From a bacterium (GTDB taxonomy: Bacteria; Patescibacteriota; Saccharimonadia; Saccharimonadales; SZUA-47), in assembly GCA_030427445.1 (NCBI GenBank), contig JAUIBQ010000002.1, forward strand, positions 101 through 64,100: a DNA stretch of 64,000 nt. The letters run 5' to 3'. The position numbers and the translations under genes were made by a program. This document shows, piece after piece, positions 8,581 to 63,109 of the stretch. The notes below the pieces were generated by a model. It was given only the letters and a program-made list of their open reading frames with translations, did no database searches and was not told where the DNA came from. Each line of letters begins with the position of its first letter. Within the stretch, counting starts at the first letter, position 1.

Positions 8581-8620
8581 GTTACAGATTAGTGTACCTC
8601 AACAGCAAAACGCTCTCAAA

Positions 8621-8662
8621 ATAAAAAACTGCCCTCTCGCATTTTTGTGGGCAGTTTCTTTG
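8621..8662 (-). terminator. Rho-independent terminator after mscL (bidirectional architecture)
   Basis: ctgccc-N14-gggcag hairpin with A-tract upstream and T-tract downstream. Confidence 0.55.
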
Positions 8663-8689
8663 AACACAATTAATTATACACTACGTGTG

Positions 8690-9010: not shown

Positions 9011-9078
9011 GTCTCCTTTTTCACCTTTTATGGTTCAATCGTACTACATTTTTGCACAACAGAAAAATCAAATACGTC

Positions 9079-10278: not shown

Positions 10279-10394
10279 AATGTCTCCTATTTTGGATACA
10301 AGTATACTCTTTAATCTGTAGAGTTTTGTTAATTTACCTACTTTAAATTAAAGAGAGTATTGATTTTTATTTAATTTTGTGATATTATATATGT

Positions 10395-10835: not shown

Positions 10836-10839
10836 ATTT

Positions 10840-46782: not shown

Positions 46783-46813
46783 AAACGACCCTACCAGAGG
46801 GTCGTTTTTATTT
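46783..46813 (+). terminator. Rho-independent terminator after hsp20
   Basis: aaacgaccct-accag-agggtcgttt + ttatttg. Confidence 0.7.
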
Positions 46814-46914: not shown

Positions 46915-47343
46915 CTAGACGACGTTATCAACGCTGTTCGCTGTACCGAGTACGAATCGAACGATAACTTGCGCTAACGCAACTACTACAAGGCCGATAA
47001 CCGCATAAAGGATGGTGTTCTTAGCACCAGATACGCTGTCTGATGAACCTTGGGAAGTGATGTATTTCACGCCACCTACCATAATCATGACAACAGAAAT
47101 GATACCAATAATCCACGAGAATAGGTTAATCGCATCAATAACTAGTTGGTTAACATTGTTTCGACCTGCGTCAGTCGCTGTGCCACCGCTACAGGTAGCA
47201 TTAAGATTGAGCTGAGACCCTTTACAAAGTCCTTCTTCTGTATTGTTCTGAGCTACAGCAACTGTCACAGGCACAAGTGGTGCGCCGAAGGTAGCAAGGC
47301 TCAAAATCGCGGTCATCATAAATGTTTTAATTTTTTGGATCAT
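46915..47343 (-). CDS. T4SS pilin-like protein, paralog 1 (signal peptide + variable Cys-pair ectodomain + conserved two-helix C-terminal domain)
   Basis: C-terminal IIGIISVVMIMVGGVKYITSQGSSDSVSGAKNTILYAVIGLVVVALAQVIVRFVLG shared by 7 tandem ORFs; VirB2/TrbC-like topology. Confidence 0.6.
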   Translation of the reverse strand: MIQKIKTFMMTAILSLATFGAPLVPVTVAVAQNNTEEGLCKGSQLNLNATCSGGTATDAGRNNVNQLVIDAINLFSWIIGIISVVMIMVGGVKYITSQGSSDSVSGAKNTILYAVIGLVVVALAQVIVRFVLGTANSVDNVV

Positions 47344-47439
47344 TATTATTTTCTCCTTTTATTAGAAAATACCTACATTTTCATGTGTTTACGCACTTAA
47401 GTGTATCTGGTTTTATGAAAAAATTCTAGTGTTTTAGCT

Positions 47440-47886
47440 TCAAGAATTAGCAATGTCTGCAGTAGTGCCGAGTACAAAGCGTACTATCAGTTGTGCTAGT
47501 GCTACTACTACGAGGCCGATGATAGCGTAGAGAATGGTGTTTTTCGCTGCAGTGACATTGCCTGAATCACCCTGAGAAGTGATGTACTTCACACCACCAA
47601 CCATGATCATAACGACTGCGATAATGCCAATCACAAGAGAGAAAAGGTCTATTGCGGTCGCGATAAGTTCTGAAATTTGCTCTTCAGCTATACCAAAATC
47701 TGAACCACAGTCCACAGCGTCTTCGTCTATGTTCGCACCTCGACATAAATTTTCTTGAATGTCCTGCGCTCCGACTTGCGGTGAAAGAAACGGCACAAAT
47801 AGTAGTCCTGTGACCATTAGCACCACAGCCGGGAAGTGTACAATCTTTGATGCGAGAAGCGCGAGTGAATGTGATGAATTAAACAT
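47440..47886 (-). CDS. T4SS pilin-like protein, paralog 2
   Basis: VIGIIAVVMIMVGGVKYITSQGDSGNVTAAKNTILYAIIGLVVVALAQLIVRFVLG; Cys pair LCRGANIDEDAVDC. Confidence 0.6.
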   Translation of the reverse strand: MFNSSHSLALLASKIVHFPAVVLMVTGLLFVPFLSPQVGAQDIQENLCRGANIDEDAVDCGSDFGIAEEQISELIATAIDLFSLVIGIIAVVMIMVGGVKYITSQGDSGNVTAAKNTILYAIIGLVVVALAQLIVRFVLGTTADIANS

Positions 47887-47904
47887 ACTAACCTTTCAAT
47901 TACT

Positions 47905-48312
47905 TTATGCAAAGAATCCGAGGACGAAGCGAACAATGAGCTGTGCAAGTGCGACGACGACGATTCCGATTGCTGCGTATATGATAGCATTCTTTGCTTG
48001 AGAAACCTTCTGTGAGTCTCCTTGAGAGGTGATGTAGCGTAAGCCTGCCAGCATAATCATCAATACTGCGATAATGCCAGCGACAAAAGAAAGTAGGTTT
48101 AGTGCTGATTCAAGTCCATTATCAATAGTTACGTCGTCTGTGTCATCGGTGCATGAAGCATTATTGTCGATAACTCCAAGTGATTCACATGCAGCATCTG
48201 AAGAGTTATTTTGAGCATGTACCAGTTGCGCCGGAAAGAAAAGACTGAATAAAAAGACACCTGTGATAAGAAGCTTGCTAACTGAAGTTAATTTTCTCGT
48301 CATATCGTACAT
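47905..48312 (-). CDS. T4SS pilin-like protein, paralog 3
   Basis: VAGIIAVLMIMLAGLRYITSQGDSQKVSQAKNAIIYAAIGIVVVALAQLIVRFVLG; Cys pair ACESLGVIDNNASC. Confidence 0.6.
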   Translation of the reverse strand: MYDMTRKLTSVSKLLITGVFLFSLFFPAQLVHAQNNSSDAACESLGVIDNNASCTDDTDDVTIDNGLESALNLLSFVAGIIAVLMIMLAGLRYITSQGDSQKVSQAKNAIIYAAIGIVVVALAQLIVRFVLGFFA

Positions 48313-48322
48313 TATAAAACCC

Positions 48323-48727
48323 TTAGTTTATTAGCTCTCCAATAACAACTGAGACGATGGCTTGAGCAAACAGGACAATCACGATACCTATTACAGCATA
48401 TATCATGAGGTTTCTTGCACTGTTAAACTTCTGTGGATCGCCGTCAGACGTCATCATCTGGACACCACCAACAATAATTATAATAACTGCAATAATACCT
48501 GCCACGATTGAGAGGATATTGAAAACACTTCTAAATAAACCGTCCTCACCACTAACGGGGTCTTCTGTGCTCTGTAAATCTTGGCATATCGGTGAACTAG
48601 ATGAGTCATTTCGACACACTTCGTTGATAGCATTACTTTGTGCACCGACCAAGGTAGGCGATAAAGAAATCAGGATAACGAATAGCAAAGCCAGAGTCGA
48701 TAGAGATGTTTTTATGCTCGTTATCAT
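48323..48727 (-). CDS. T4SS pilin-like protein, paralog 4 (more divergent)
   Basis: VAGIIAVIIIIVGGVQMMTSDGDPQKFNSARNLMIYAVIGIVIVLFAQAIV; Cys pair VCRNDSSSSPIC. Confidence 0.55.
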   Translation of the reverse strand: MITSIKTSLSTLALLFVILISLSPTLVGAQSNAINEVCRNDSSSSPICQDLQSTEDPVSGEDGLFRSVFNILSIVAGIIAVIIIIVGGVQMMTSDGDPQKFNSARNLMIYAVIGIVIVLFAQAIVSVVIGELIN

Positions 48728-49014
48728 AGTGCCCCCGCAACAAATCTTATAATTGAAGTTGCAAGTGCAGCAATGATAATTCCGACTATTGCGTATATGA
48801 TTGTATTTCTTGCATTTTTTGTTTTCTGTGGATCACCTTGTGAAGTTATGAAATTAATGCCAGCAACAATAATAACTACAGTCGCAACAGCAACCACCAA
48901 GATAAATACCCACCCCATTATGGTGTCTAAGCCTGCTTCCTGATTTTCATTTTTAGGCAAACCAGTAAGGTCGTCTGGGTTGATATTAATCTGAGAAAGC
49001 TTGTGAAAATACAT
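48724..49014 (-). CDS. T4SS pilin-like protein, paralog 5 (core only; lacks signal peptide and Cys-containing variable domain)
   Basis: VAVATVVIIVAGINFITSQGDPQKTKNARNTIIYAIVGIIIAALATSIIRFVAG; overlaps paralog 4 start by 4 nt. Confidence 0.5.
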   Translation of the reverse strand: MYFHKLSQININPDDLTGLPKNENQEAGLDTIMGWVFILVVAVATVVIIVAGINFITSQGDPQKTKNARNTIIYAIVGIIIAALATSIIRFVAGAL

Positions 49015-49015
49015 A

Positions 49016-49468
49016 TTACCCTCCCAGAGTCCTTCCTACATATGCAACAATTTGTGATGCAATAAGCACTATAGCGAAACCAATAGCAGCGTTTATAACT
49101 GTTTGGCGCGCTTTTGTAGCGTTGTCAGGATTGCCTTGAGATGTAATAAACTTAAACGAACCCCAGAAAATCATAACTAATGCTACGAATGTTGACGCCT
49201 TTAATAACCCTTCAAGGATGGTGATGCCTATCACTAAAGAAGTATTGACTTGCTCTTCTTCGTCGCCGTCACCTAAAGAAGGCTGACAATCCCCCTCTTC
49301 ACTTTCTGGTAAATAGTTATACCATGCAGGTATAGTGAGAAAGCTGTCTTGACACCTCACCGGTAGAGCATGGGCTTTCTGGGGAGCGGCATTGCTAGCG
49401 ATAGCCAATGCACTAAAAATAACTATCAAACTAACTGTCATCTTTAAAAATATAGTCTGCAGCTTCAT
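49016..49468 (-). CDS. T4SS pilin-like protein, paralog 6
   Basis: FVALVMIFWGSFKFITSQGNPDNATKARQTVINAAIGFAIVLIASQIV; Cys pair RCQD..DCQP. Start set to ATG 49468 (signal peptide MKLQTIFLKMTVSLIVIFSALAIASNA) because the longer ORF-track version overlaps paralog 7. Confidence 0.5.
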   Translation of the reverse strand: MKLQTIFLKMTVSLIVIFSALAIASNAAPQKAHALPVRCQDSFLTIPAWYNYLPESEEGDCQPSLGDGDEEEQVNTSLVIGITILEGLLKASTFVALVMIFWGSFKFITSQGNPDNATKARQTVINAAIGFAIVLIASQIVAYVGRTLGG

Positions 49469-49508
49469 TACAAATATCATATACCATTTATTAGCCAAAG
49501 ACCAAAGC

Positions 49509-50057
49509 CTAGAGCACTCCTCCTGGCACGAGGAAATTAAGTAAACCATACCCAAACACGAATAGTGCTAGTGCAACCAGAGCCCAAACGATACGTTTTT
49601 TAGCTGCAGCAACCGCCGCCGGATTATCGCGAGCCGACATATATTGATATCCAGCAAACATGACTGACGCGACTATCGCCATAATGGCTAAGGCAGACAA
49701 AAAGTTAATCGCAATTACTAGATAGTTAATGATCGTACAATTGTCTTTACTAAGAGCTACACCATTACCTGGCTCACAGTTATTTGGATCTGAGGCGTCA
49801 AAACCACTTACACCTTCTGTTTCGCTAACACACGCTCCATCTATAGAGCTAGTCCCGATTTGGCACTGACAATACTCTGCTGTAACTGCTCTTCCAGCAA
49901 CTACTTCTGTTTCTGTAGTCCATGTACCACCAGACGCTTTGCATGCTTCTTCATCAGCAGAGACTGTGGGTGGTGCTACAAAAAACAGAAAAACACCTGT
50001 TGCTAGAATCGCGACTATGAGTGAGTTGATTATATAAATTTTTATTTGATTAAGCAT
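49509..50057 (-). CDS. T4SS pilin-like protein, paralog 7 (largest, Cys-rich ectodomain; first gene of the pilin operon)
   Basis: FLSALAIMAIVASVMFAGYQYMSARDNPAAVAAAKKRIVWALVALALFVFGYGLLNF; seven Cys in ectodomain. Start set to ATG 50057 (RBS aaagg). Confidence 0.5.
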   Translation of the reverse strand: MLNQIKIYIINSLIVAILATGVFLFFVAPPTVSADEEACKASGGTWTTETEVVAGRAVTAEYCQCQIGTSSIDGACVSETEGVSGFDASDPNNCEPGNGVALSKDNCTIINYLVIAINFLSALAIMAIVASVMFAGYQYMSARDNPAAVAAAKKRIVWALVALALFVFGYGLLNFLVPGGVL

Positions 50058-50160
50058 TTTATTACCTTTATATTTTATAGTATACAAACATTTAATACTA
50101 TGTACAAAAATAGTATTTGTGTACATAGTACTTACGTTTTTAATATCAATGGTTTATTGG

Positions 50161-50188: not shown

Positions 50189-50821
50189 TTGGGCAAGGCA
50201 TTTATAATCAAATTCATCACTATATCAGTAGTGCTAGCATTACTAGTATTCGTGGGCACTATAGTATATAGATTTTTTTTCGATAAGGTGATGATTAATG
50301 AAAATAGCCTTGTTGTTACATCAAACAACAACGTAGAGTACATGACTCCAGACAACTGGAATGAACTTTACACGGGATCTACTGACTTAACCGTCGCGTA
50401 CTCGCCTAAGGAAGAGGATAGTTTAGAAAGCGCAGATGATATCCTAGGTTTTAGAGTAGAAAATAAAGCACCGACAAATTTTAGTTATACCAATCTCACT
50501 TCAAATGAAAAACAAATTGCAGAGACAAACCTAATAAATGACTACACTGATCCTGATTTTTTTGAGTATATATGTTCTGATCCCAGCAATATTTCCGCTA
50601 CGAAAGATGTACAAACTCTGGAGAATTTTGATTTGTCGTTTAGTATTAGCATGGACTGCAACAGAGAGTCTGAAAATGGAGTTTTGCCAAGTAAAATAAA
50701 TGCTGTTGCAGGAATAAAAGCTGGGACTGAGTACATTTTGTTTTATAGTGTAAGCGAAAAAACATATAAGAATAACGAGGTAGTTCTGGCAAAGATACTA
50801 AATTCGCTTAGCTACTTATAG
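50189..50821 (+). CDS. Hypothetical membrane-anchored protein, first gene of T4SS operon (TTG start)
   Basis: RBS aaggggg 5 nt upstream of TTG; N-terminal TM FIIKFITISVVLALLVFVGTIVY. Confidence 0.4.
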   Translation: MGKAFIIKFITISVVLALLVFVGTIVYRFFFDKVMINENSLVVTSNNNVEYMTPDNWNELYTGSTDLTVAYSPKEEDSLESADDILGFRVENKAPTNFSYTNLTSNEKQIAETNLINDYTDPDFFEYICSDPSNISATKDVQTLENFDLSFSISMDCNRESENGVLPSKINAVAGIKAGTEYILFYSVSEKTYKNNEVVLAKILNSLSYL

Positions 50822-50878: not shown

Positions 50879-53800
50879 ATGCAAAGAAATAAAAGCAAAG
50901 CCATCATCTTAAATAAAATTCGAGCACAACAATTGTTTGTAGTTGCTTATTTCATGATACTACTTATAAACATGCTCGGTTTGTTTAACGTAGGTCAGGT
51001 TAGGGCTGCTCCTTTCTATGAAAACATACAGACAGACTACACAGTGTACAACCTTCTAGTGGGCTTTTCTTACAGTTGTGGTGTTGATGGAGGCGATGAC
51101 AGAAGGATGAGTCTCGACGACATGAATGATGTCTACGATAACGACGAAGGCAACGACAACGCAGGATATGACGGAAACAATTATGAGTCAGATCCTGGTA
51201 AGAGAATAAACTTGGGCTTATCTACAAGTGGTTTTGGTGTCATTGATGGTATGGCAAGTTGTGACGAGATAGCGACAGAAGCAGTCACCAGAATTATGGA
51301 TTATTATGAAATTGACAATGACAGGCCAACTGATGCAGATGAAGCAAAATCATACATAATTAACTTCTTATCAGTGAGCGCAGGTGACACCAAGGAAGAC
51401 ATGATTGAGTACATTGAAAGTCTTGAAGGTGATGGACTAAAAGACGTCCTGGGAATCAACAGCACTATAGAACTAAGAAGTAATGCGTGGCGCAATTTTG
51501 TAGATACCATTACTGAACCGATGTTTGAAGAAATTGGTCAGAGCTTAGTCGATAACGTAACTGAGATTGACCTCGCTAACTGGATCGCACCAGCCTTAAA
51601 CTACTGCTTAGACTGGTCCGACACAGCACCTCAAAATAACGACGATATACGAATTGATTTATCTAGTACGGCTGGACTATATGGGTTTACTCCGGTAGAT
51701 GGCTATAGCGAAAGTAGGATGAGTGAAGTATTTTCTTCTTTTGATAAAGGAAGCGACGGAAAACTATTTGCAGGAAAATCTTGGGCTAGTATCGCTGATG
51801 GAGAGTTTTATTTTCTGTTTAGAGATTATGCTCGTTACCCATCTGAAAATAGTGGCGCTTTTCATGACGCCTATGAGGCATTTATAGATACAACAACAGC
51901 ATATCTTAGTGGAGGGTGGAGTTTGGTAGTGGGTCCTGACGACTCTGAAGAAGGGTATTTTTATCCTTTCGGTTATTCAAGTGAACTATTCTTTGACGAT
52001 GTACCTAGTGCTCGTTCACATAATGAAGGCTTCCGAAGAGGCGGTTTACTATCTTGCCAAAATATTGAGGAAAATGTTAGCAAGTTTGACGATGGTATGG
52101 AGGGAAAAGGAGACGGTAGAAACATTCAGGCTAAAGCACCTACCGCAGGTACGGGTGTGCCCCAGAATACAACTGGCAATGGAGGCGAAGCTGTCGCTGC
52201 TCAACCAAGCTGTGAGTCTCAAGGAGGAGCATTTAGTTTTATCCTTTGTCCAGCACTGGAGGCTATGGGAGACGGGTTTGTCTGGTTCGATCAGAGAATC
52301 GAAGATGCTCTTGTGGTTAATACTTCATATATTACAAACGACGGGACTCGCGATGCATGGAACAATTTTAGAAATATTGCCTATATATTACTTATTCCGA
52401 TAATGCTCGTGATGGTTATTGGCACAGCATTGAATTTCAATTTCCTAGATGCTTACACAGTCAAGCGTGCTCTTCCACGCTTATTTGCAGCGGTAATCTT
52501 TATAACACTTTCCTACAGTATCTGCCTCTTGATGATTGAGGTCACCAATGTCATAGGTGCAGGCACTAGAGGTCTAATATCCTCACCATTTGGCGGAACA
52601 GAAGCGTTAAGTCTAGAAAATATATTTAACCCTCCTGGGGCAGGCGGTACAGCTTTATATGGGTTAGCAATATTTGGTGGTATCGGCATAGCTGCGCTGT
52701 CGGGTGTGACCATTGGCTCATTGTTTGTCACAGTTGCGCTGGGGGCATTGGCGCTTTTGATAGTTTTTGTACTTTTGTATCTTCGCGAACTACTTATCAC
52801 TTTACTTGTCATTCTCGCACCACTCGCAATTGTTGCATGGATTTTTCCTGGCAATGATAAACCTTGGAAGTTTTGGTGGCAGGCATTTTCAAAAATGCTG
52901 TACTTTTTCCCGGTGGTCATCGCAGTAATAACATTCGGTAAGGCTTTTGCTTCAATCGTAGATGTGGTTGCTGGTGAAGACGGAAACGTCATAACAACCA
53001 TGATAAAAATAGTTGCATATGTAGGCCCATACTTCTTTATTCCGAAACTCTTTACTATGGCGGGTGGTGCATTGGGTAATATAGCTGGTATGGTGAACGA
53101 CAGAAGTAAAGGTGTCTTTGACAGAGGGCGTAAGGCTCGCGAAGGAATGAAAGCAAACCAGAGACAACAAATTAAGGCTGGCGGTGGAGGAGTTTTTGGG
53201 GTCGGAAAGAATAGTAGAATCGGAAAAGGTTTTGGGTCTATGGGAGCGGGTGCATACGGTATAGGTAAGTCTCTTTCTGATAACGGTGTCGCTGGATTAA
53301 GTAGAGGAAATATCACAGCAGCACGACGAGCAAACGAAGCTATTCATGGTAAAAAGATGCTTGACGATGATCATGATATGGGTGTATGGGATGGAAATGA
53401 TACTGTTTCGGGTATCAGCTCTGATTTAATGACGGGTAATGTCACTGGTTTAGCTCTACAACTGTCGAGAGCTCATGGCTTAAGCGAGAGTGATGCCATG
53501 GCGGAGGCTCGAGGAATGGTATCACAGTTTAGAAGAAACTCAGGACAGGGACTTGAGAATGCATTTTCTCGTATTGGCGGTATGGAAGGTGCCGAACTAC
53601 GAACTGCTGTTGCACAAGTCCAAACAGCTAGAGGAAAGTACTCTGACGATATTTTATCAAGACATCTTGTTGAAAAAGCAATGGCAGGAGGAACTTACTA
53701 TAAAAACTCTGGTGAAGCTTGGCATGCAGCAGGTCTTGCAACAGAAGGCAACGAAAATGCTGTTGCCTCAATGAACGTGACGGGCAGAAAAGCTCTTATT

Positions 53801-54412
53801 GGTGCGGGACAAATTATAGATGGGGGTGCGGGATTTGGCACAACAAGAGGGGAGATGCTAACTGCTGCCTCTGCTGGAGGGGAGAGGAGTTTCGATGAAA
53901 TATCTCAGTCACAGCGCAGGTACGAAACTGCAGCAATGGAGTCAAAGTCTATGCAATCTCTCCTACATGAACAAATGAAGGCTGGCAACTACGACAAAGT
54001 TGCGAGCTTCTTGCGAACGAATATATCTGAAGCCTATGAGTCAGGCGATCAGAGACGTATTGAACAGGCTGTTGCTGTTGCAGAGCAGGCGCATGTGATA
54101 GCAAAAAACGCTAGTCCAGCAGCAGACAGAGCAGTGTCTGAAGTCATGGACATGCCAGTTTATGTAGGCATGTCGTCCGCTAATGCAAACAGCCCATTCA
54201 ATCGGGACCCTACGGGAAGACGCATATTGTCCGCTCAGGAACGTGATGCACCAACAGTAAGGCAAGAAACTCATCGTCTGGGTAGAGATTCTGGTACATA
54301 CCAAGACATTCAAAGACAATATACAGAGGCCGAATATCAAGGTCAATCTCAAATTATGGGAAGAACCCCTGATGTAGGAGCAAGTACACCAGGACCCACT
54401 GAAGGACTTTAA
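50879..54412 (+). CDS. Giant polytopic membrane protein, VirB6/TrbL-like channel component with large extracytoplasmic N- and C-terminal regions
   Basis: Signal/TM at N-terminus, ~450-aa acidic ectodomain, central block of >=6 TM helices, Gly-rich C-terminal ~400 aa. Confidence 0.45.
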   Translation: MQRNKSKAIILNKIRAQQLFVVAYFMILLINMLGLFNVGQVRAAPFYENIQTDYTVYNLLVGFSYSCGVDGGDDRRMSLDDMNDVYDNDEGNDNAGYDGNNYESDPGKRINLGLSTSGFGVIDGMASCDEIATEAVTRIMDYYEIDNDRPTDADEAKSYIINFLSVSAGDTKEDMIEYIESLEGDGLKDVLGINSTIELRSNAWRNFVDTITEPMFEEIGQSLVDNVTEIDLANWIAPALNYCLDWSDTAPQNNDDIRIDLSSTAGLYGFTPVDGYSESRMSEVFSSFDKGSDGKLFAGKSWASIADGEFYFLFRDYARYPSENSGAFHDAYEAFIDTTTAYLSGGWSLVVGPDDSEEGYFYPFGYSSELFFDDVPSARSHNEGFRRGGLLSCQNIEENVSKFDDGMEGKGDGRNIQAKAPTAGTGVPQNTTGNGGEAVAAQPSCESQGGAFSFILCPALEAMGDGFVWFDQRIEDALVVNTSYITNDGTRDAWNNFRNIAYILLIPIMLVMVIGTALNFNFLDAYTVKRALPRLFAAVIFITLSYSICLLMIEVTNVIGAGTRGLISSPFGGTEALSLENIFNPPGAGGTALYGLAIFGGIGIAALSGVTIGSLFVTVALGALALLIVFVLLYLRELLITLLVILAPLAIVAWIFPGNDKPWKFWWQAFSKMLYFFPVVIAVITFGKAFASIVDVVAGEDGNVITTMIKIVAYVGPYFFIPKLFTMAGGALGNIAGMVNDRSKGVFDRGRKAREGMKANQRQQIKAGGGGVFGVGKNSRIGKGFGSMGAGAYGIGKSLSDNGVAGLSRGNITAARRANEAIHGKKMLDDDHDMGVWDGNDTVSGISSDLMTGNVTGLALQLSRAHGLSESDAMAEARGMVSQFRRNSGQGLENAFSRIGGMEGAELRTAVAQVQTARGKYSDDILSRHLVEKAMAGGTYYKNSGEAWHAAGLATEGNENAVASMNVTGRKALIGAGQIIDGGAGFGTTRGEMLTAASAGGERSFDEISQSQRRYETAAMESKSMQSLLHEQMKAGNYDKVASFLRTNISEAYESGDQRRIEQAVAVAEQAHVIAKNASPAADRAVSEVMDMPVYVGMSSANANSPFNRDPTGRRILSAQERDAPTVRQETHRLGRDSGTYQDIQRQYTEAEYQGQSQIMGRTPDVGASTPGPTEGL

Positions 54413-54449: not shown

Positions 54450-55607
54450 ATGGCCGTTTATAAAGTACCACAAGATGTCGAGGCAGAGGACAAGTTTTTA
54501 GGTCCTTTGACGTTCAAGCAGTTTCTCTTTTTCGGAGGAGTGTTAATCTTTGGATACATCACATTTCTTACAGCAACTAAGGTGGTGTTTCTTGCTCCGG
54601 TTTTCGCTATCCCTACGCTCGTTTTTGCCGTGCTTGCGACACCCTGGAGCAAAGACCAGCCGACGGAAGTGTTCTTAGGTGCTCGCTTCCGGTTTTTCTT
54701 CAAACCACGCAAGCGTATCTGGGACCAGACAGGCATCAAAGACTTAGTCAAAATCACCGTGCCAAAACGTGAAGCTCATGTGTATTCAGACGGCCTCTCA
54801 CAAGGTGAGGTGAGAAAACGCTTTGGTGCGTTAGCAACGATGGTAGACAGCCGTGGCTGGGCTGTAAAGAGCGTTCCGGGACTTTCACAAGTCAACGTAG
54901 CAGAGCAGAGTGACCGACTTGTCGAAGCTCCTCAGCAAGCTCCAAGTCAAAACGAAGCGATTTTAGCGCAGACTGAAGATGTGCTTGATGAAGACACCGG
55001 TGTCGTCGGAAAAAGTCTCGACAACATGATCGCTCAGTCAGAGCAAAAACATAAAAGTGAAACTCTGAAAATGATTCAACAAGCCCGTCAGGGTGGTGGG
55101 GGAGATACGAGTGCACCTAGCTTAAGCCCAGCACAAAAAAATAACACTGCCAAACCTAAAGCTGACCAGAACTCTCAAGATTTCTGGTTTATGCATCAGC
55201 AAAACGGCCAGGGTGGGCAAGCAGCCCCAGACCCTTCGCTCGCAACATTTAGCAACTCAACTGTTGTGTCTCCTGGAAGCACCACTCAACAAACCACAAC
55301 TCAGTCTGTTAAAGACGACCCCGTAGATGAGCAAGCAGTGTTGGATAAAATCCACGAAAAAGAGCGTAGAGACGCACTGCAGACACATTCACATCATGGC
55401 AAAGTAGTAAACCCGGACGGCACTGTACCTCAACAAAACGAAAGCCAAACAACAGAAGAAAAAAAGGATAAGCAAAACGTGACTACTCCTGTTAATCCTG
55501 ATATACTGAACCTAGCATCTAACAGAGATTTGAACGTTGCTACGATCCAGAGGCAAGCGAATAAAAAAGACGACGGCCAAGACGAAGTCGTGATTTCGCT
55601 TCACTAG
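54450..55607 (+). CDS. PrgI-family (VirB3-like) T4SS protein with long low-complexity C-terminal extension
   Basis: N-terminus MAVYKVPQDVEAEDKFLGPLTFKQFLFFGGVLIFGYITFL + second TM matches PrgI family hallmark (VP.D...EDK...G.LT..Q + 2 TM). Confidence 0.55.
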   Translation: MAVYKVPQDVEAEDKFLGPLTFKQFLFFGGVLIFGYITFLTATKVVFLAPVFAIPTLVFAVLATPWSKDQPTEVFLGARFRFFFKPRKRIWDQTGIKDLVKITVPKREAHVYSDGLSQGEVRKRFGALATMVDSRGWAVKSVPGLSQVNVAEQSDRLVEAPQQAPSQNEAILAQTEDVLDEDTGVVGKSLDNMIAQSEQKHKSETLKMIQQARQGGGGDTSAPSLSPAQKNNTAKPKADQNSQDFWFMHQQNGQGGQAAPDPSLATFSNSTVVSPGSTTQQTTTQSVKDDPVDEQAVLDKIHEKERRDALQTHSHHGKVVNPDGTVPQQNESQTTEEKKDKQNVTTPVNPDILNLASNRDLNVATIQRQANKKDDGQDEVVISLH

Positions 55608-55677: not shown

Positions 55678-56484
55678 ATGCAGCCGCAAAACCAATATCC
55701 TAATCAACCTGCTGGCATGCCTGGAAACCCAGGTCAGCCTGTTGCTCAGTCGCCAAAAACCAACCCAAATAGCACACAAAACACGTTGCAGATTGCAGAA
55801 ATCCGTGACGGAATCGTCATCATGAATGACGGTAGTTTCCGAGCTGTAGTCGCGTGTCAGAGCATCAACTTTGACCTCATGAGTCCTGAAGAGCGTGAGG
55901 CTGTTGAGTACAGTTATCAAGGATTTTTAAACTCGCTTTATTTTCCAGTACAAATATTTGTCAGAAGTCAGAAAGTAGATATCCGACCATACATTGAAAA
56001 GTTGGACAAAATCCGCTCAGAGCATGACAACATGCTTTTAGCACTTTTAATGGAGGACTACATTGGCTTTATGTCTTCACTCGCACAAGAAACAAACATT
56101 ATGGATAAAAAATTCTATGTTGTCATCCCGTATTTCAAGTCAGTAGACGGTCAACAGCTAGTAGAGCAGAGTAAGGGCTTTTTCCAGAGTTTTATGGGTA
56201 AAAAAGAGGAAAAGGTTGTGATCAACGAGCAAGACCTTGAAAAAGGTAAGGCAGAGCTTAGGAATCGCATCCAGGCAATTATGGCCGGACTCCAGCAATG
56301 TGGAGTGCAGTCCGTACCTCTTGATACACAAGAATTGATTGAACTTTACTACGATGCGTATAACCCAGATACTGCGACACGCCAGCAGATTACACGATTT
56401 GACGGCATGCTCAACACTGACGTCATCGAAAAAGGGCAGGGCGATGCAGCTCAACCGCAACTAGATAAGGAATTGGGTAGTTAG
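55678..56484 (+). CDS. VirB4/TrbE N-terminal domain-like protein (separate ORF) with Pro/Gln-rich leader
   Basis: IAEIRDGIVIMNDGSFRAVVACQSINFDLMSPEEREAVEYSYQGFLNSL resembles the start of CagE/TrbE/VirB4 N-domain; stop TAG 2 nt before GTG of the ATPase ORF. Confidence 0.45.
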   Translation: MQPQNQYPNQPAGMPGNPGQPVAQSPKTNPNSTQNTLQIAEIRDGIVIMNDGSFRAVVACQSINFDLMSPEEREAVEYSYQGFLNSLYFPVQIFVRSQKVDIRPYIEKLDKIRSEHDNMLLALLMEDYIGFMSSLAQETNIMDKKFYVVIPYFKSVDGQQLVEQSKGFFQSFMGKKEEKVVINEQDLEKGKAELRNRIQAIMAGLQQCGVQSVPLDTQELIELYYDAYNPDTATRQQITRFDGMLNTDVIEKGQGDAAQPQLDKELGS

Positions 56485-56486
56485 TC

Positions 56487-58403
56487 GTGGGATTATTCGG
56501 AGGAAAACCAAAACTCGATCCAGTTGCTCAAGCACAGCTTCAGCAAGCCCAGGAGCAAATGGAGGTACAGGCAGCATTTCAAAAAGGCGTGACTGCACTT
56601 CGGGACTTCATCGCACCGGCAAGCCTAGAGTTTGAAAGTTCGATGTTTAAGATCGGCACGCGGCTCGCGCGCACCTATTTCGTGTACGGCTACCCTCGGC
56701 AAATTTATACAGGCTGGCTTTCTAGTATGATCAATCTCGATGAGGTGATCGATATTTCAATGTTTATCTACCCGGTTGAGAGTCAAGCAGTTCTCGAAAA
56801 CCTCCGTAAAAAAGTCGGTCAGCTCGAAGCAGGTATCCAAATCGACGCTGAAAAAGGTCGCGTGCGTGACCCACAAAAGCAAGCAGCTATCCAAGATGCT
56901 GAAGAGTTACGAGACAAGCTCCAGGTGGGCGAAGAGCGGTTTTTCCGCTTTGGTCTGTATTTCACTGTATACGCAAACAGTCCTGAGGAGATGGAGTTCG
57001 TTACGCACAAGGTTGAGAGTATGCTCGGTCAACAGCTTGTGTACTCAAAACCTGCAAGCGCACAACAAGAACAAGGTCTAAACTCGACAATCCCACAATT
57101 CACCGACCAGCTACAAATCCGCCGTAACATGAACACAGGAGCTATCAGCACGAGCTTCCCATTCACGAGCTCTGATCTATCTCAAGAAAACGGCATTCTC
57201 TACGGTATCAACATGCACAACTCAGGCCTTGTGATCTTTGACCGTTTCAGCCTTGAGAACGGCAACTCTGTTGTCTTCGCGAAGTCAGGCGCTGGTAAAA
57301 GCTTTACCGTGAAGCTCGAAGCGCTTCGAAGCATGATGTTTGGCACTGAAGTGTTTATTATCGACCCAGAAAACGAATACCAGAGAATGGCGGAAGCTGT
57401 AGGCGGCGCGTATGTACGACTAAGCCTAAACTCCACAACACGAATCAATCCGTTTGACTTGCCGCAAGTCGTAGACGGGGAAGAGGCAGACAACGCGCTG
57501 CGAAGCAACCTCATCACCCTCCACGGACTTCTTCGTCTCATGATGGGTGGTGCACAAGCGCAAATGGCAGGCCAACAAGGCGCAATGATGGCGCCAGCAC
57601 TCAGTCCAGTCGAAGAATCAGATCTTGACCAAGCTCTCATCGAAACCTACGCAAAAGTCGGGATTACAAATGACCCATTAACTCATAAATCTCAGCCGCC
57701 AACTATCGCTGATCTCTACGATACACTCCTCCACATGGGAGGCACCGGACCGCAGCTAGCGCAACGACTGCGAAAGTACACCACAGGTACATTTGCCGGT
57801 ATCTTTTCACAGCAAAGCAACGTAAATATCAACAACCCGTTGGTGGTATTTAATATTCGTGACCTTGAGGATGAGCTTCGACCAGTCGCAATGTACATTG
57901 TCCTAAACTACATCTGGAACAAAACAAAATCTGACCAAAAGAAACGTTTGCTTGTTGTTGATGAAGCGTGGCAACTAATGAAATACGAAGATTCGGCAAA
58001 CTTTATGTTCTCTCTTGCGAAGCGTGCTCGTAAATACAACCTTGGCATCACAACCATTACGCAAGACGTCGAAGACTTTATGGGCTCTCGTATGGGGCGT
58101 GCTATCGTCGCCAACTCTAGCATGCAGCTTCTACTAAAGCAGTCGGCATCGGCGGTTGATGTACTTAGTGACGTCTTTAAGCTGACGAGTGAGGAGAAGA
58201 AGCGTCTTAGTCAGTTCCCAGTGGGTCAAGGCCTGTTCTTTGCTGGTCAAAACCATGTGCACATCCAAATAGTTCCTAGCCAGACAGAGGCTTCTCTTAT
58301 CACGACCAATCCAGAACAGGTGAAGCAGCTCGAGCAGCAGCAACAAAATCAGCAAGTCGACCTTAATCAAACAGGATATAATGATACTGTGAATCTACGA
58401 TAG
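56487..58403 (+). CDS. virB4: VirB4/TrbE/PrgJ-family T4SS ATPase (C-terminal part)
   Basis: Walker A VFAKSGAGKSFTVK, Walker B RLLVVDEAWQLM, motif ITQDVEDF; GTG start. Confidence 0.8.
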   Translation: MGLFGGKPKLDPVAQAQLQQAQEQMEVQAAFQKGVTALRDFIAPASLEFESSMFKIGTRLARTYFVYGYPRQIYTGWLSSMINLDEVIDISMFIYPVESQAVLENLRKKVGQLEAGIQIDAEKGRVRDPQKQAAIQDAEELRDKLQVGEERFFRFGLYFTVYANSPEEMEFVTHKVESMLGQQLVYSKPASAQQEQGLNSTIPQFTDQLQIRRNMNTGAISTSFPFTSSDLSQENGILYGINMHNSGLVIFDRFSLENGNSVVFAKSGAGKSFTVKLEALRSMMFGTEVFIIDPENEYQRMAEAVGGAYVRLSLNSTTRINPFDLPQVVDGEEADNALRSNLITLHGLLRLMMGGAQAQMAGQQGAMMAPALSPVEESDLDQALIETYAKVGITNDPLTHKSQPPTIADLYDTLLHMGGTGPQLAQRLRKYTTGTFAGIFSQQSNVNINNPLVVFNIRDLEDELRPVAMYIVLNYIWNKTKSDQKKRLLVVDEAWQLMKYEDSANFMFSLAKRARKYNLGITTITQDVEDFMGSRMGRAIVANSSMQLLLKQSASAVDVLSDVFKLTSEEKKRLSQFPVGQGLFFAGQNHVHIQIVPSQTEASLITTNPEQVKQLEQQQQNQQVDLNQTGYNDTVNLR

Positions 58404-58430: not shown

Positions 58431-61400
58431 ATGTATCCAGGACCAGGTTCAGTTATAACACCAGGAGGGTCTAGTACAGGTCCTGATAATGACCCGAGAA
58501 ATCCAGTCGCTAAACCTTGGAGTGATGAAGAAATCGCTAAAGGCGTTCAACAACTAGAAGATCATGCAAATGATCCAAAAAACGCTACTAAAAATTCCCA
58601 GTCTGCGGCTAAGGGTGAATCAAACACCTCTCCGCATAAGGGGAATGAAAGTTCAGCTCTTGATGAAGAAAAAGGTAAGTTTAGGACTTCTTTAAGCGAC
58701 AAGCTTCGTCAGGATAATTCTTTAGTTGGCCTCGCAAAGCGACACAGAGCACGACTTGCTTTGGCCAGTGCAACTTTTGGAGTTGCTGGACTAATGGTTG
58801 GTGGTTTTATTGCTGCTCCAAGTTTTATACTGTCTCACATAAGCACCCTTATTACTGACAAGACAAGCGAGCTTCAAGTTAATAGTCAAGCAAAGTATCG
58901 CCGTTCGAAATTCGCTAGTTTCACTGACAGATTTACAATAGACGGCAGAAGATCTGGTGCGCTCATTGCAGAAATGAAGAAATTCGGCTATAAGATCGAC
59001 GTTAAAAATGGTACATTCCAAGCACCAGGTGGCTCATCAAAACCACTAGCGGAAGCTGGCGAAGAATTCTCAGAATTTATGGACCAACGCTACAAAATTT
59101 TTGGTGTACCGACACGTTCGCAGACATGGAAAACAAAACGTACTGATGCGCTTTTTAATAGGCATAATGTCGTGCGGTCATCTTCCGTGACATCTAAACC
59201 AGGCGATCTAGAAGACCCAGAGATACAGATGAACAAAACTCAGAATAATTCAATTAATGAGGGTAGCGAGATTGATACAAGCATAGATGAGTCTCCGGCA
59301 AAGAGAGATACTGACTCCGGGAATGAAAATATAGATAGCGATAATGAGAGCTATAATCAAGCTAATGATGAAGCGGCTGAAGCATTGGTACCAGAGGATA
59401 ATGTGTTTAGGCAAGCTGCTGATGATCTTGCCGATGGAGTAAGTATTAATGAACTTGGCGGGGTTGGACCTATCGGTGATGAGCTTGATCTTGGCTATGG
59501 CCCAAATCTCGTAAAAGCAGAGGTGAGAAGGAGTCTTCTTAGTCCCGGTGGGGCAGCTGCCGGAGCTGTTACCATTGCTAAGTCTGCACTTTTACCTGCA
59601 GATATAGCCGACAAAGCATGTACCGCAAATTCACGTCTCGATATGGCGGTAAAAGTGGCGAGAGCTGCTACAAGCGTCAAAATGATGCGCGCAGCTTTGG
59701 TGTTTGTAAGTGCAGATGATGGACAAAGAAGACAGGAAGCATCATTTGATTTAATGATGCAGATAGTTAAGCGAGTGATGTTGAGTGATAAAGCTATGGG
59801 AAATTTTGCTAATTCGGCAGGCTTTCAGTTTGCAAGTAATGGCTCTTTTAGTAGGTCAGCGCTGGAGAATCAGCCTTCTAAATTTAATACTTCTGGAAAG
59901 CTTTCTGCATTTTGGGGTGCCGTACGTAGTGCGACCGGAAAGATACCAGGATGTAGCGTATTGGGAAATACGGCATTTCAAATAGGTCTTGGGATTGGTG
60001 CGGTAGCATTGTCGATAGCGGTTCCAGGATCTGGCGCCGCTGCAGGCACAGGGGTTAAAACAGCACTACAAACTGCTGTACAGGGATTTTTTACAAAAAA
60101 AGCTCTGACTGGTATACTTGCGGGGCTGATAATTGATTACAGTTTTGAAGAAATACTGAACTTAACTACGTTATATGTGCAGAAACAACTCACTATGGCA
60201 ATCACAGGACAAGAGACTGGGGGCATGTATTCGAGTCTTTTATTCTCAGGAGCGGGAGTTCTTACTAAACAGAGATTCTTAAATGCTGGACAGGTACCCG
60301 CGACAGCCACACAATACGCACAAGCACGAGACATATTCCTAGCTGAGAAACGTGAAGAATCTAAAAATAAATCACTTGCTCAAAGATTATTTGATTTCTC
60401 TGATTATGACTCTCTCGCATACCAAACCACAGCCACACTTGCTTTGAATAGCGGCACACCTTCTGCTGCGATATCAAATTTCGGCACCAGTGTAGCGAGC
60501 CTGCCTTCATTAATGACAAATACCGTTACATCACTAACAACCGGCCGCGCATATGCTCAAGATTCTGATGAGCAATTAGCGTTCGACACAATTAGCATAA
60601 ACGGCACAGAATACGCGACAGATCCATCGGGTAATCTTCTCACGATCATGCGTGACGATATAAGCAGTATAGATGTTGATGAGAACCTTCAAGAATTAGA
60701 AGACGAAGGACATATAAGCAGTGAAGCTACAGGCTACGAACCAAAAAGTAGCGAGTTTACTACTTTTATGGAGTTATGTATAGACTCTGTCGATCAAATA
60801 AGCGCCATGGAAGAGGGAGAAGATTGTGCTGGCACAAAAACATTAACTAAGAAATTCTATGCGCATCTAGCATATTTAGACTCGATTGACTTCATAGATA
60901 GCTCACTGTTCTCGAACGAAATCAGTAGCTATGGCAGTGGCAGTAGTACACAACCAACTAACGCACCGAATGCATACTCAGTATCTGCGATTGAACCGGC
61001 GGAGGGATTGATACAAGGCACAAGTATCGAAGCACAGGACACAAGCAATATGGAATGCCCTATAAGTGACACCGTGCAAGACTTAGGCATAGAAACTGAG
61101 GCCTATGTAAAAGGAGTGAGGTACAGTGTTAGACTGTGCGCAGTACATGGTATTCGCATAAATGTCCTTATTGCTAAACAACTTGATGACATGTTAAATG
61201 AAATGGCTGACGAAGGCTATACCGTACGTGGAAGCGGTGGCTTTAGGGATCACGCAAGCCAAGTAGCAGGGTATGCTGGTGGCGCAGGGGCAGGGACGTT
61301 TGCAAAACCAGGATATTCAAATCACCAATTCGGACTGGCTATCGACTTCAGTTGTCAAGGACAAGGACAAAGTTACACAGCTGGTACGGGTAGATATCGA

Positions 61401-61568
61401 GATAGCTTCTTGCAAAACCTTAGTCAGTACCCTTGCCTGGAGTGGTTATCCAGAAATTCACCTCGCTATGGACTTCTTAACTCGTGTGTAGCCCAGGGGT
61501 CTCAAGGTGAAATTAGAGCAACTTCGGGTGGCTGTGAATGGTGGCATTTTTCACCTGATGGGAAATAA
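58431..61568 (+). CDS. Large T4SS-associated membrane protein with C-terminal peptidase M15 (VanY/D-Ala-D-Ala carboxypeptidase-like) cell-wall hydrolase domain
   Basis: C-terminus SNHQFGLAIDF (SxHxxGxAxD) and CEWWHF (ExxH) zinc-peptidase motifs; TM segments at ~110 aa and ~520-560 aa. Confidence 0.6.
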   Translation: MYPGPGSVITPGGSSTGPDNDPRNPVAKPWSDEEIAKGVQQLEDHANDPKNATKNSQSAAKGESNTSPHKGNESSALDEEKGKFRTSLSDKLRQDNSLVGLAKRHRARLALASATFGVAGLMVGGFIAAPSFILSHISTLITDKTSELQVNSQAKYRRSKFASFTDRFTIDGRRSGALIAEMKKFGYKIDVKNGTFQAPGGSSKPLAEAGEEFSEFMDQRYKIFGVPTRSQTWKTKRTDALFNRHNVVRSSSVTSKPGDLEDPEIQMNKTQNNSINEGSEIDTSIDESPAKRDTDSGNENIDSDNESYNQANDEAAEALVPEDNVFRQAADDLADGVSINELGGVGPIGDELDLGYGPNLVKAEVRRSLLSPGGAAAGAVTIAKSALLPADIADKACTANSRLDMAVKVARAATSVKMMRAALVFVSADDGQRRQEASFDLMMQIVKRVMLSDKAMGNFANSAGFQFASNGSFSRSALENQPSKFNTSGKLSAFWGAVRSATGKIPGCSVLGNTAFQIGLGIGAVALSIAVPGSGAAAGTGVKTALQTAVQGFFTKKALTGILAGLIIDYSFEEILNLTTLYVQKQLTMAITGQETGGMYSSLLFSGAGVLTKQRFLNAGQVPATATQYAQARDIFLAEKREESKNKSLAQRLFDFSDYDSLAYQTTATLALNSGTPSAAISNFGTSVASLPSLMTNTVTSLTTGRAYAQDSDEQLAFDTISINGTEYATDPSGNLLTIMRDDISSIDVDENLQELEDEGHISSEATGYEPKSSEFTTFMELCIDSVDQISAMEEGEDCAGTKTLTKKFYAHLAYLDSIDFIDSSLFSNEISSYGSGSSTQPTNAPNAYSVSAIEPAEGLIQGTSIEAQDTSNMECPISDTVQDLGIETEAYVKGVRYSVRLCAVHGIRINVLIAKQLDDMLNEMADEGYTVRGSGGFRDHASQVAGYAGGAGAGTFAKPGYSNHQFGLAIDFSCQGQGQSYTAGTGRYRDSFLQNLSQYPCLEWLSRNSPRYGLLNSCVAQGSQGEIRATSGGCEWWHFSPDGK

Positions 61569-61576
61569 AGAACTTT

Positions 61577-63109
61577 ATGACTAAAAAATCATTCCTACTC
61601 ACCTCGATTACGGCAATCATCATGACATTAACTGCGATACTTTTACAGTTTTCCATTGTGACTGCACAAGAAGAGGAGGAATGCACTGAGGCACAATTAC
61701 GAGCACAGGGAGTTATTGTGGTTTCTTGCAACCCTTTACCGGCAGAGAACTGCACAACTGTGGGTACTGTAAGCAGCAGAAACCCAGCCACTTCTGAGTA
61801 TTTATCTATTACTTATCCTGAAGCACTTGATAGCATCCCTGATTTGGCACAAAAAATTGATACTTTCATAGCTAGTAAGAATTCAACAACCCCATGGAAT
61901 GGACTAGGTTCCTTTATCATAGAAGAAAGTAAAAAGTACGACGTCAACCCTGTTTTTATAGTTGCCACGGGCAGGTCTGAAACTGGCTTCAGAGGGTCGA
62001 GTTCAAGCAGGTACAACTATTTTGGTATTAAAAACTCCAGCTCTACATATCGTCAATTCACAAGTGCAGAGGAAGGAATTGCATACTTTATTTCTACCAT
62101 ACCGGAATATTTAAGCGGAGAGAGATCAGGAGGAAGGTATCAAGGTATAAATACGGTATATGAGTACTCCTCAATACATCAAACTGGTAGCGTTGTTTAC
62201 CCAGGAGAGCCATTCGATCCTAACGATATCGATGAAAAGAAGGGGAACACTCAAGACTTATGGGACCCTGCAATGGCCGTGTATGTGAGCTGGGACGAAA
62301 ACGCTAACAACAGGCCTGAAGTAAACCCAAAATACAAAGGTAACGTATATAACCCGCTCAATTATTACAAACTAAATATTGAGACTTTTAATGGCATCCT
62401 TGGTTTAAACTTGCCTGATACACCTGGTGGAGTCACGGCTCAGTGTGGGTCTTTGACTGCTGGTGCATCTGGCTGGGACCTGCCAGGAGAAGGAGCGAAT
62501 CCTATGGTTTACTACTCCCAGAGAAGGTCTGGAGATGATACTGCTTTAAGTGCTGACGCATTACGTGAGGTTATTGGTAGGTCCTTTAATTATCCCTCGG
62601 GATATTTCGGCAACGACAATTATGGTCCAGGACCGATAGCGCATTGCGGATGCGGTCCGACATCGTGGGCAATGATTGTCAGTACGCTTACTGGTGAAGT
62701 TACGACACCTACCGAAGTAGCTGAATGGGCGAACGAGAATGGTTGGCAATCTGACGGTGATCCTTGCGGTGGATCTAATTGGTGGTGGAACTCCCAAGAA
62801 TCTTCCGAAGCGAAATGGAAAGTATCAGCAACCCCTATAACCATCTCGGATGCACCCGATGCATTACGCTCGGGCTCTTTAATACTGGTTTCTGCAGGAT
62901 CAGGACCATTCACAAGCGGAGGGCATCTTTTAGTGATGAGAGCTGTGACAGATGATGGGAAATTCTTATTTGCAGACCCTAATGACTATAGAGATACTAG
63001 ACAGGCAGCATTCAATGTGTTTAACGGCGAAAGTAAGAGTCGCACACCACTAAGTGAAGAGCAGTTTATAGGCAGTATAAAAGGGCTATGGGAGGTTAAG
63101 CCATTATGA
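61577..63109 (+). CDS. Secreted cell-wall hydrolase: glucosaminidase (FlgJ/Mannosyl-glycoprotein endo-beta-N-acetylglucosaminidase-like) + C39-like/CHAP-like cysteine peptidase domain
   Basis: Signal peptide; ATGRSETGFRGSSSSRYNYFGIK (glucosaminidase motif); CGPTSWAMIV ... GGHLLVMRAV (Cys/His peptidase_C39_2-like). Confidence 0.55.
   Translation: MTKKSFLLTSITAIIMTLTAILLQFSIVTAQEEEECTEAQLRAQGVIVVSCNPLPAENCTTVGTVSSRNPATSEYLSITYPEALDSIPDLAQKIDTFIASKNSTTPWNGLGSFIIEESKKYDVNPVFIVATGRSETGFRGSSSSRYNYFGIKNSSSTYRQFTSAEEGIAYFISTIPEYLSGERSGGRYQGINTVYEYSSIHQTGSVVYPGEPFDPNDIDEKKGNTQDLWDPAMAVYVSWDENANNRPEVNPKYKGNVYNPLNYYKLNIETFNGILGLNLPDTPGGVTAQCGSLTAGASGWDLPGEGANPMVYYSQRRSGDDTALSADALREVIGRSFNYPSGYFGNDNYGPGPIAHCGCGPTSWAMIVSTLTGEVTTPTEVAEWANENGWQSDGDPCGGSNWWWNSQESSEAKWKVSATPITISDAPDALRSGSLILVSAGSGPFTSGGHLLVMRAVTDDGKFLFADPNDYRDTRQAAFNVFNGESKSRTPLSEEQFIGSIKGLWEVKPL

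Follow-up and report, generated by a model that had tools for sequence, protein, structure and literature searches.

What raises the question at this locus is a row of seven pilin-like genes in a Saccharimonadales genome: are they interchangeable variants of a single subunit, or different parts of one machine? The genes lie in a 64,000-nt stretch of contig JAUIBQ010000002.1 (assembly GCA_030427445.1), referred to here as the window. They are consecutive open reading frames (ORFs), all on the minus strand at positions 46915-50057, and we named them P7 (first) to P1 (last); the coordinates agree with the initial annotation and are given with the most plausible starts (Table 1). Our reading, which we hold to be probable, is that they form one operon of VirB2-like pilins belonging to a chromosomal, monoderm-type type IV secretion system (T4SS). 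In this operon, six non-interchangeable classes and one duplicate would be exported by Sec as helical hairpins and contribute to a single heteromeric pilus or conduit.

A shared helical hairpin

Alignment of the seven proteins revealed a common C-terminal module of about 67 amino acids (aa), comprising a helix, a loop of the (I/M)TSQGD type and a second helix. P1-P3 end in IVRFVLG and P5 in IIRFVAG. Every protein scores above the gathering threshold of PF18895 (T4SS_pilin; 26.6 bits), with values of 27.2-59 bits. As all seven exceed this curated cut-off, the seven-gene pattern is real and far beyond chance. PF04956 (TrbC/VirB2) was matched at 17-28 bits by five proteins, among which P4 (28.1 bits) passes the cut-off of 27.9 and three others reach 25-27 bits. 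With a T4SS operon adjoining the array, these matches bear out the initial annotation, which had described pilin-like paralogs with a shared two-helix module and placed them in the VirB2-type family. A hidden Markov model of the core, built from the seven proteins, was run against every frame of the window and detected no additional copy.

The region upstream of the core had been described as a hydrophilic segment of 40-110 aa. It is in fact composite. Six of the seven proteins (P5 is the exception) begin with a hydrophobic Sec-type leader of 29-40 aa that has n-, h- and c-regions and small residues at -3/-1 (VAVA↓Q, VGA↓Q, VHA↓Q, VGA↓Q, AHA↓L and VSA↓D, where the arrow marks the predicted cut). 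The leader is followed by an acidic head of 33-77 aa with a net charge of -1 to -10. What survives of the earlier description is a divergent, Cys-containing exposed segment. The pair or more of Cys said to be present almost always was found as exactly two residues in P1-P4 and P6 and as six in P7, and there are none in P5. The latter, correctly singled out before as core only, lacks a signal peptide and has a 29-aa acidic N-terminal tail with a Q(I/V)N(I/V)NPDD motif.

The loops between the two helices have net charges of 0 to +3. Because the heads are acidic and the loops basic, the positive-inside rule would place the heads and C-termini outside the cell and the loop in the cytoplasm, a topology consistent with an N-out/C-out helical hairpin. 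AlphaFold2 models contain such a hairpin in P1 (H56-96/H101-141, predicted local distance difference test (pLDDT) 70-82, with a disordered head) and in P7 (H104-141/H146-176, pLDDT 84-89).

Small proteins with signal peptides and Cys pairs could also be secreted products (lipoproteins, bacteriocin-like peptides or effectors) that merely adjoin the T4SS. A MacB-type ABC transporter and a sortase are encoded 3-5 kb away, and a TM7x transcriptome paper labels the genes of such an array putative effectors. Against this, a lipobox (L-[ASTVI]-[GAS]-C) is absent from all seven proteins, in which the first Cys lies 5-9 residues past the predicted cleavage site, no double-glycine leader is visible in the seven sequences, and the two C-terminal transmembrane helices would anchor the proteins. 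With the curated pilin family matched by all seven and T4SS synteny conserved across divergent genomes, we regard this explanation as close to refuted. The class III leader of type IV pilins (G↓(F/M)-T-L-x-E), with its single N-terminal helix, was found in none of the seven, which have two C-terminal helices instead. The lipoprotein, type IV pilin and bacteriocin readings were thus rejected on motif and topology grounds. The initial annotation had named a lack of pilin-profile matches, together with a lipoprotein or bacteriocin character, as grounds for abandoning its proposal; the profiles match and the lipobox is missing.

Position-fixed classes and the places where they vary

We compared the array with six related loci: L001 (from a metagenome-assembled genome), L003, with which L004 pairs, L005, L006, L007 and L009. 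Relatives were gathered by P5 and P7 protein searches and contig look-ups, and searches with the VirB6-like protein returned one locus each from genome contigs and metagenome contigs. The VirB6-like protein of L001 shares 45% identity with that of the window over the best-matching segment. No sequence closer than these was found apart from L002, the DNA of which is 100% identical to that of the window.

Gene order and sizes are alike in the six loci: a long-headed P7, then P6, a leaderless P5, P4, P3, P2 and, in some, P1. When all members were compared with one another, 194 of the 200 best cross-locus matches fell at the same array position, and because of this we take the paralogs to be ancient, position-specific orthogroups, with six classes (P7-P6-P5-P4-P3-P2) and a lineage-specific duplicate, P1. 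P1, a duplicate of the P2 type, is missing from L003 and L007, as it is from the array of Candidatus Southlakia epibionticum ML1 (see below), which has six pilins.

Identities by segment were calculated between the window and its three nearest relatives (L006, L009 and L003). Cores are 68-97% identical across all classes. Identity in the heads of P1-P4 and P6 is 50-80%, and these heads keep their Cys pairs and motifs (for example, FLTIPAWYNYLP in P6 and IQENLCRGA in P2). Signal peptides mostly share 20-40% identity (up to 70%), and the leaderless N-terminal tail of P5 shares 31-50%. The P6 head is 59-80% identical, the P4 head 59-62% and the P3 head 52%, with 79-90% in the P3 core. The most conserved core is that of P2, which is 96-97% identical to those of L006 and L009 (nonsynonymous divergence, dN, 0.01-0.02), with a head identity of 50-76%. 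The core-only form of P5 was kept in every relative examined, at 96-100 aa.

A comparison of nonsynonymous with synonymous divergence (dN/dS) between core and ectodomain had been suggested as a check. In Nei-Gojobori estimates between the window and five relatives, dS was saturated (>1.2 or undefined) in almost every pair, which leaves only dN and identity usable. Heads have a dN of 0.15-0.45, well below that of the leaders (mostly 0.6-1.2), and both measures indicate that the heads of P1-P4 and P6 are for the most part more conserved than the leaders. We conclude that the heads differ among paralogs because the paralogs are old, and not because they are under present diversification.

The head of P7 behaves differently. 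Across 45 homologues, identity to the P7 of the window is 60-91% in the core and only 14-28% in the head. The homologous heads range from 49 to 215 aa, have even Cys counts (mostly six, up to 14) and conserve only a membrane-proximal loop, C-x(9-13)-[DE]NC-x-I[IV]. On this comparison, P7 is the only class with a truly hypervariable, Cys-rich head. In the P7 orthologue of L001 (positions 8507-9298, minus strand; 263 aa), a Cys-rich module of about 50 aa (C..DG.WVEIPSPPNENRGSSFACDCPG) occurs twice. As this orthologue duplicates the module, head growth by module duplication is possible.

Recombination was detected at the other end of the array. In L003, and also in L004, the sole terminal pilin of the six-gene array (L003 7036-7482) is a P2/P1 mosaic. 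Its first 270 nt share 64-89% identity with P2 of the window versus 33-53% with P1, and its last ~130 nt share 87-88% with P1; the P2-like portion comprises leader, head and first helix, and the P1-like portion the loop, second helix and tail. An unequal crossover within the conserved core, with loss of one gene, would account for this structure. L001 has two terminal pilins (5729-6172 and 6280-6738, minus strand) whose DNA is 100% identical in the leader (86 nt) and the core (~210 nt). They differ in the C-terminal tail and in the head, where the differences include synonymous changes and an indel of 27 nt. The pattern points to gene conversion of the leader and the buried core, with two distinct exposed surfaces kept. 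Judged from these two relatives, modular exchange is limited to the terminal P1/P2 pair.

These observations bear directly on the proposal that each paralog builds a pilus or tip alone, and that the array allows antigens to vary or the host range to be switched, an idea put forward for the VirB2 paralogs of Bartonella and Anaplasma. The paralogs of the array share only 23-48% protein identity with P1, with most of the difference in the exposed head. Also in its favor are the hypervariability of the P7 head across species, the variable copy number of P1/P2, with head/core recombination seen in L003 and L001, and the speculation on adaptation to different hosts in a survey of such arrays (PMC12102498). 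All the same, the classes are position-fixed, the heads of P1-P4 and P6 remain 50-80% identical where dS is saturated, and the headless P5 is universally kept. The genes also form a single operon with translational coupling and no invertible or silent-cassette structure, and all six ML1 pilins were called essential on a single host (subject to a polarity caveat discussed below). We therefore consider interchangeable pilins improbable. Fast turnover among equivalent variants was not what we found, given the 194 of 200 positional matches; only the P7 head and the P1/P2 pair vary. The shuffled, hypervariable heads of the initial annotation thus do not hold in general, and the idea stands for the P7 head and for P1/P2 recombination in relatives. 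Recent gene conversion or cassette switching was also considered for the window genome itself and was rejected, as the paralog cores are 60-73% identical in DNA and the inverted repeats are short.

The gene spacing was examined across the array. From P7 to P1, the intergenic gaps are 40, 1, -4 (an ATGA overlap), 10, 18 and 96 nt. The P6 stop codon lies 1 nt ahead of the P5 start and P5 overlaps P4 by the 4 nt, and the overlaps within P6-P5-P4 recur in L001 and ML1; by this arrangement, the three genes are translationally coupled. A mechanically called P6 ORF with a TTG start would extend to 49555. P1 is preceded by a spacer of its own (96 nt) with a canonical AAGGAG ribosome-binding site, and the terminator-like hairpin 3′ of it would mark the end of the operon.

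Known systems and genomic setting

Tandem VirB2 genes are documented in Patescibacteria, where 441 arrays of 2-11 pilin genes were reported from 383 assemblies, with a mean intra-array identity of 25% and a maximum of 54% (Quinonero-Coronel et al., 2025, PMC12102498). Arrays of 4-6 small, VirB2-related proteins with signal peptides, next to VirB4/VirB6 genes, were described in Saccharibacteria (McLean et al., 2018, bioRxiv 10.1101/258137). The initial annotation had called a seven-fold expansion unusual; given these arrays, and the six genes of ML1, it is unusual only against classical systems. The surveyed Patescibacterial and TM7x arrays resemble that of the window in their tandem PF18895/PF04956 genes near virB4, signal peptides and low within-array identity (here 23-48% to P1). 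The published clusters have no relaxase, and none was found among the scanned window ORFs of at least 150 aa. The window array is a further example of the known arrays and differs from them in nothing essential.

What is new here is modest: the position-specific orthology, the conserved leaderless P5, the hypervariable P7 head, the recombination confined to P1/P2, the family-wide Cys pair and the poly-pilin fusions (see below). The searched passages of PMC12102498 and bioRxiv 10.1101/258137 make no mention of position-specific orthology, a Cys pair, a leaderless core-only member, a hypervariable first member or fused multi-hairpin genes.

The closest functional information comes from ML1, which has six PF18895 genes (SEML1_0014-0019, encoding 132, 185, 103, 126, 127 and 138 aa), each called GD/ES/ES in transposon sequencing (Tn-seq; Wang et al., 2023, PMC10633639, Tables S1/S2). 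A 2025 review singles it out as the sole T4SS of the Gram-positive type with pilins resembling VirB2. We compared it with the window by gene order, sizes, flanks and family annotation. Both arrays have a first pilin, a pilin of ~185 aa in ML1, a core-only pilin of ~100 aa that overlaps its upstream neighbour by 4 nt, and three pilins of ~126-138 aa in ML1, all matching PF18895. Both are flanked by an Hsp20 gene on the opposite strand, a ComF-like phosphoribosyltransferase and tRNA-Ser, and both have divergent partners encoding a VirB6-like protein, PrgI, a small TraC-like protein and VirB4. They differ in number (six pilin genes versus seven here, owing to the P1/P2 duplication) and in the first pilin, which is short in ML1 (132 aa), whereas P7 has 182 aa and a six-Cys head. 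The window has an extra gene for a 210-aa membrane protein before the VirB6-like gene, and only in ML1 are there two VirB6-like genes (0011 and 0013), separated by a non-essential NTF2-like gene. The synteny with ML1 suggests a Patescibacterial host for the window array, as does the scaffold that carries L004, whose 818,748 bp are typical of these small genomes.

Classical VirB2/TraA/TrbC/TrwL pilins (PF04956) share with those of the window a leader, two hydrophobic helices and a short basic loop, and are encoded alongside VirB3, VirB4 and VirB6. However, they usually come as one gene per system, and the mature protein is ~7 kDa without an N-terminal extension. The window pilins are 96-148 aa when mature, carry an acidic, Cys-containing extension of ~30-77 aa and reach the PF04956 cut-off in one of seven cases, and the system belongs to a monoderm host without VirB7/9/10, in contrast to the classical diderm T4SSs. 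Anaplasma and Bartonella also have tandem, divergent virB2 copies and use their T4SSs for host interaction, not conjugation (cited in PMC12102498). Their paralogs are read as antigenic variants, whereas those of the window are old and position-fixed and those of ML1 are each called essential. Because of these two properties, we favor distinct structural roles for the paralogs. The archaeal conjugative (Ced/Ted) pili (PDB 8dft and 8dfu) are DNA-import systems with no detectable sequence relationship to the family; the likeness is that of a generic helical hairpin.

The T4SS genes of the window run divergently from the array (Table 1). Those for VirB4, PrgI and the VirB6/TrbL_3-like protein lie within 0.8-8 kb of it, and the seven pilin genes are 6.4-9.6 kb from virB4. 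The VirB6-like protein has no Pfam match itself, and shares 42-45% identity over ~500-750 aa with orthologues that match PF19590 (TrbL_3). The operon also encodes a 235-aa protein without a family match and runs to the window end at 63813. Neither a relaxase nor a coupling protein was found among the scanned window ORFs of at least 150 aa, a scan that covers the T4SS operon up to 63813. The gene for the 210-aa membrane protein lies in the lowest-GC stretch of the window (0.37) and has no counterpart at this position in L001, L003 or L006.

Table 1. Features of the pilin array and the adjoining T4SS operon (positions in the window)
Feature	Position	Strand	Description
P7	49509-50057	minus	182 aa; 34-aa signal peptide, 77-aa head with six Cys, hairpin core; PF18895 27.2 bits
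P6	49016-49468	minus	150 aa; signal peptide, 46-aa head with Cys pair and conserved FLTIPAWYNYLP motif; PF18895 32.4 bits
P5	48724-49014	minus	96 aa; core only; PF18895 52.3 bits
P4	48323-48727	minus	134 aa; signal peptide, 35-aa head (CRN...SP(I/V)C...DPVSG); PF18895 51.7 bits, PF04956 28.1 bits
P3	47905-48312	minus	135 aa; signal peptide, 33-aa head (AACE.L.VID...C); PF18895 58.1 bits
P2	47440-47886	minus	148 aa; 40-aa signal peptide, 34-aa head (IQENLCRGA...DC); PF18895 59 bits
P1	46915-47343	minus	142 aa; last gene; PF18895 47 bits
Terminator-like hairpin 3′ of P1	46867-46890	minus	consensus scan; 8-bp stem, 5 GC pairs, T-run
Second hairpin	46783-46807		bidirectional
Promoter-like site upstream of P7	50079-50106	minus	consensus match 9/12; at the palindrome
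Palindrome	50096-50130		11 bp, TACTATGTACA-N13-TGTACATAGTA; divergent promoter region upstream of P7
Membrane protein	50189-50821	plus	210 aa, N-terminal anchor; no Pfam match; between array and VirB6-like gene
VirB6/TrbL-like polytopic membrane protein	50879-54412	plus	1177 aa; divergent from array
PrgI-family (VirB3-like) protein	54450-55607	plus	PF12666 47.3 bits
TraC-like/TrsD-like protein	55678-56484	plus	resembles N-terminal part of VirB4; weak PF11130, below cut-off; orthologues match PF26593 (TraC-like)
VirB4-type ATPase	56487-58403	plus	PF19044 (TraG P-loop) 91.3 bits, plus AAA_10 and DUF87
Two cell-wall hydrolases	58431-63109	plus	VirB1-like role; 1045 aa with VanY, 510 aa with glucosaminidase and C39-like/CHAP; Pfam above cut-off

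Upstream of P7, the promoter consensus scan gave a candidate site at the palindrome; over the whole scan there were 10 sites versus 12 expected by chance, a count no higher than in shuffles. The palindrome was ruled out as a conserved operator, being absent from the intergenic regions of L003 and L006. These two regions share a different conserved block, which ends in TTTTTGTATAAT.

On the other flank of the array are genes for Hsp20, the ComF-like phosphoribosyltransferase, tRNA-Ser, the MacB-type ABC transporter and a sortase. In the segment 41745-44449 (minus strand), the sortase gene directly follows the MacB-type pair (ATPase and FtsX/MacB permease), 3-5 kb from the array. The MacB-type pair also adjoins the pilin array in L001 and L003, and is followed by the sortase in L003. 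The rest of the window encodes chromosomal housekeeping functions (RpoD, DnaG, ArgRS, ValRS, GroEL and a MurC-like ligase). A cluster at 9079-14955 (minus strand) encodes glutamate dehydrogenase, arginyl-tRNA synthetase, argininosuccinate synthase and an argininosuccinate-lyase-like protein (Lyase_1); arginine-related biosynthetic enzymes are worth recording in a genome type usually described as without amino-acid biosynthesis. A 432-aa protein (670-1968, minus strand) has a partial GGDEF (diguanylate cyclase) match, and cyclic-di-GMP signalling may be possible in this putative ultrasmall epibiont.

Proposed heteromeric assembly and its alternatives

A profile of the seven proteins matched 75,634 representative proteins among 1.84 billion at E≤1e-3, and the family statistics that follow refer to the best 150 of the 75,634 (P0013-P0162). 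Cys makes up 3.2% of the pre-core and linker segments versus 0.27% of the cores, and 81 of the 150 N-terminal segments contain exactly two Cys. As Cys is enriched outside the cores and two-Cys segments are this frequent, the Cys pair is a family-wide trait. In 139 of the 150, one chain contains 2-17 hairpin units (“poly-pilins”), the linkers of which often have Cys pairs. P0017, with four units, is a genuine ORF under translation table 11 inside a pilin array. P0013 has 17 units in 1775 aa and is probably archaeal, because it is encoded next to ribosomal protein L39e and Cas4 (NCBI GCA_975902405.1). Loci encoding poly-pilins include L010 (2861-4021) and L011 (8001-13328). Mention of them was not found in the searched passages of the T4SS survey PMC12102498. 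Natural fusions of this kind join different hairpins in one polypeptide, and for this reason we expect different hairpins to sit side by side.

In the mechanism that we propose, six of the seven pilins would be routed through Sec and lose their leaders to signal peptidase I, for the most part at A↓Q, and P5 would insert without a leader. Each would form a membrane hairpin with both ends outside; its basic (I/M)TSQGD loop would face the cytoplasm, and its acidic head, probably closed by a disulfide, would lie on the outside. The VirB4 ATPase and the VirB3/VirB6-like platform would then extract the hairpins and co-assemble the classes into one heteromeric pilus, or a conduit that spans the cell wall, towards the host. 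P2/P1 would be the likely major subunit, P2 having the most constrained core and P1 its own spacer, strong ribosome-binding site and terminator. P7, with its hypervariable Cys-rich head, would be the likely host-contact or tip subunit, and P3-P6 would likely act in minor or initiating roles and be produced at fixed ratios.

Several points weigh against this proposal. No filament has been demonstrated for a Patescibacterial T4SS, and a pilus figures in reviews only as a possibility (PMC12857230). In the ML1 Tn-seq data, calls for upstream genes could be polar, and there were 11-15 input insertions per gene (PMC10633639). The predicted signal-peptide cleavage sites were read by rule only. The disulfides are an assumption from the Cys content: the modelled heads of P1 and P7 have low confidence (pLDDT 40-69), and no Dsb/VKOR-type gene was seen among the scanned ORFs of the window. 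The major, minor and tip assignments, which we call likely, have conservation and gene position as their only basis.

The main rival has no filament at all. In it, the hairpins stay in the membrane as a ring or bundle (c-ring-like, a VirB2 pool or a stalk) that serves as a channel or scaffold of the T4SS, and the heads contact peptidoglycan or parts of the machine. Gram-positive T4SSs normally lack pili (PMC10633639 and PMC12102498), a pilus has never been imaged, the structure-based annotation for one of the ML1 pilins matched the fold of ATP-synthase subunit c, and a bundle is readily imagined for fused chains with as many as 17 hairpins. On the other hand, the family is homologous to the pilus-forming VirB2/TrbC proteins, and the hypervariable Cys-rich head of P7 fits an exposed surface driven by interaction better than an internal contact. 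In the known conjugative pili (F- and T-pilus structures), both termini are on the outside of the filament, and so the fused units are compatible with a filament too. Assembled conjugative pili are among the best compact matches by structure. Foldseek with the P1 model gave no match below E 0.39; profile searches of PDB (with profiles of 7 and of 39 pilins) returned nothing meaningful and no sequence-level match to a solved pilin. On balance, we judge a membrane ring or bundle unlikely, and a heteromeric pilus or conduit remains our preferred reading.

A more far-reaching version of the heteromeric reading is offered tentatively, as it is less probable than the reading itself. In this version, the six fixed classes would co-assemble in one heteromeric T4SS filament in which the disulfide-looped head is the differentiated module. 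The P7 head would be a host-range tip, the P1/P2 shaft cores would be kept identical by gene conversion while presenting different surfaces, and the poly-pilins of Patescibacteria and of an apparent archaeon would be a covalently pre-assembled heteromer. If true, the architecture would be new among T4SS pili, all others being made of a single VirB2 species.

The T4SS and its pilin array are essential for the epibiotic growth of the one Saccharibacterium that is genetically tractable, and they are kept in otherwise minimal genomes. The fused multi-hairpin genes provide an independent handle on which hairpins neighbour each other. P7 carries a variable surface that could set host specificity, and P5 has neither leader nor head. 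Comparison of the loci narrows the question raised by the array, in that six conserved classes, not redundant variants, point to a heteromeric machine.

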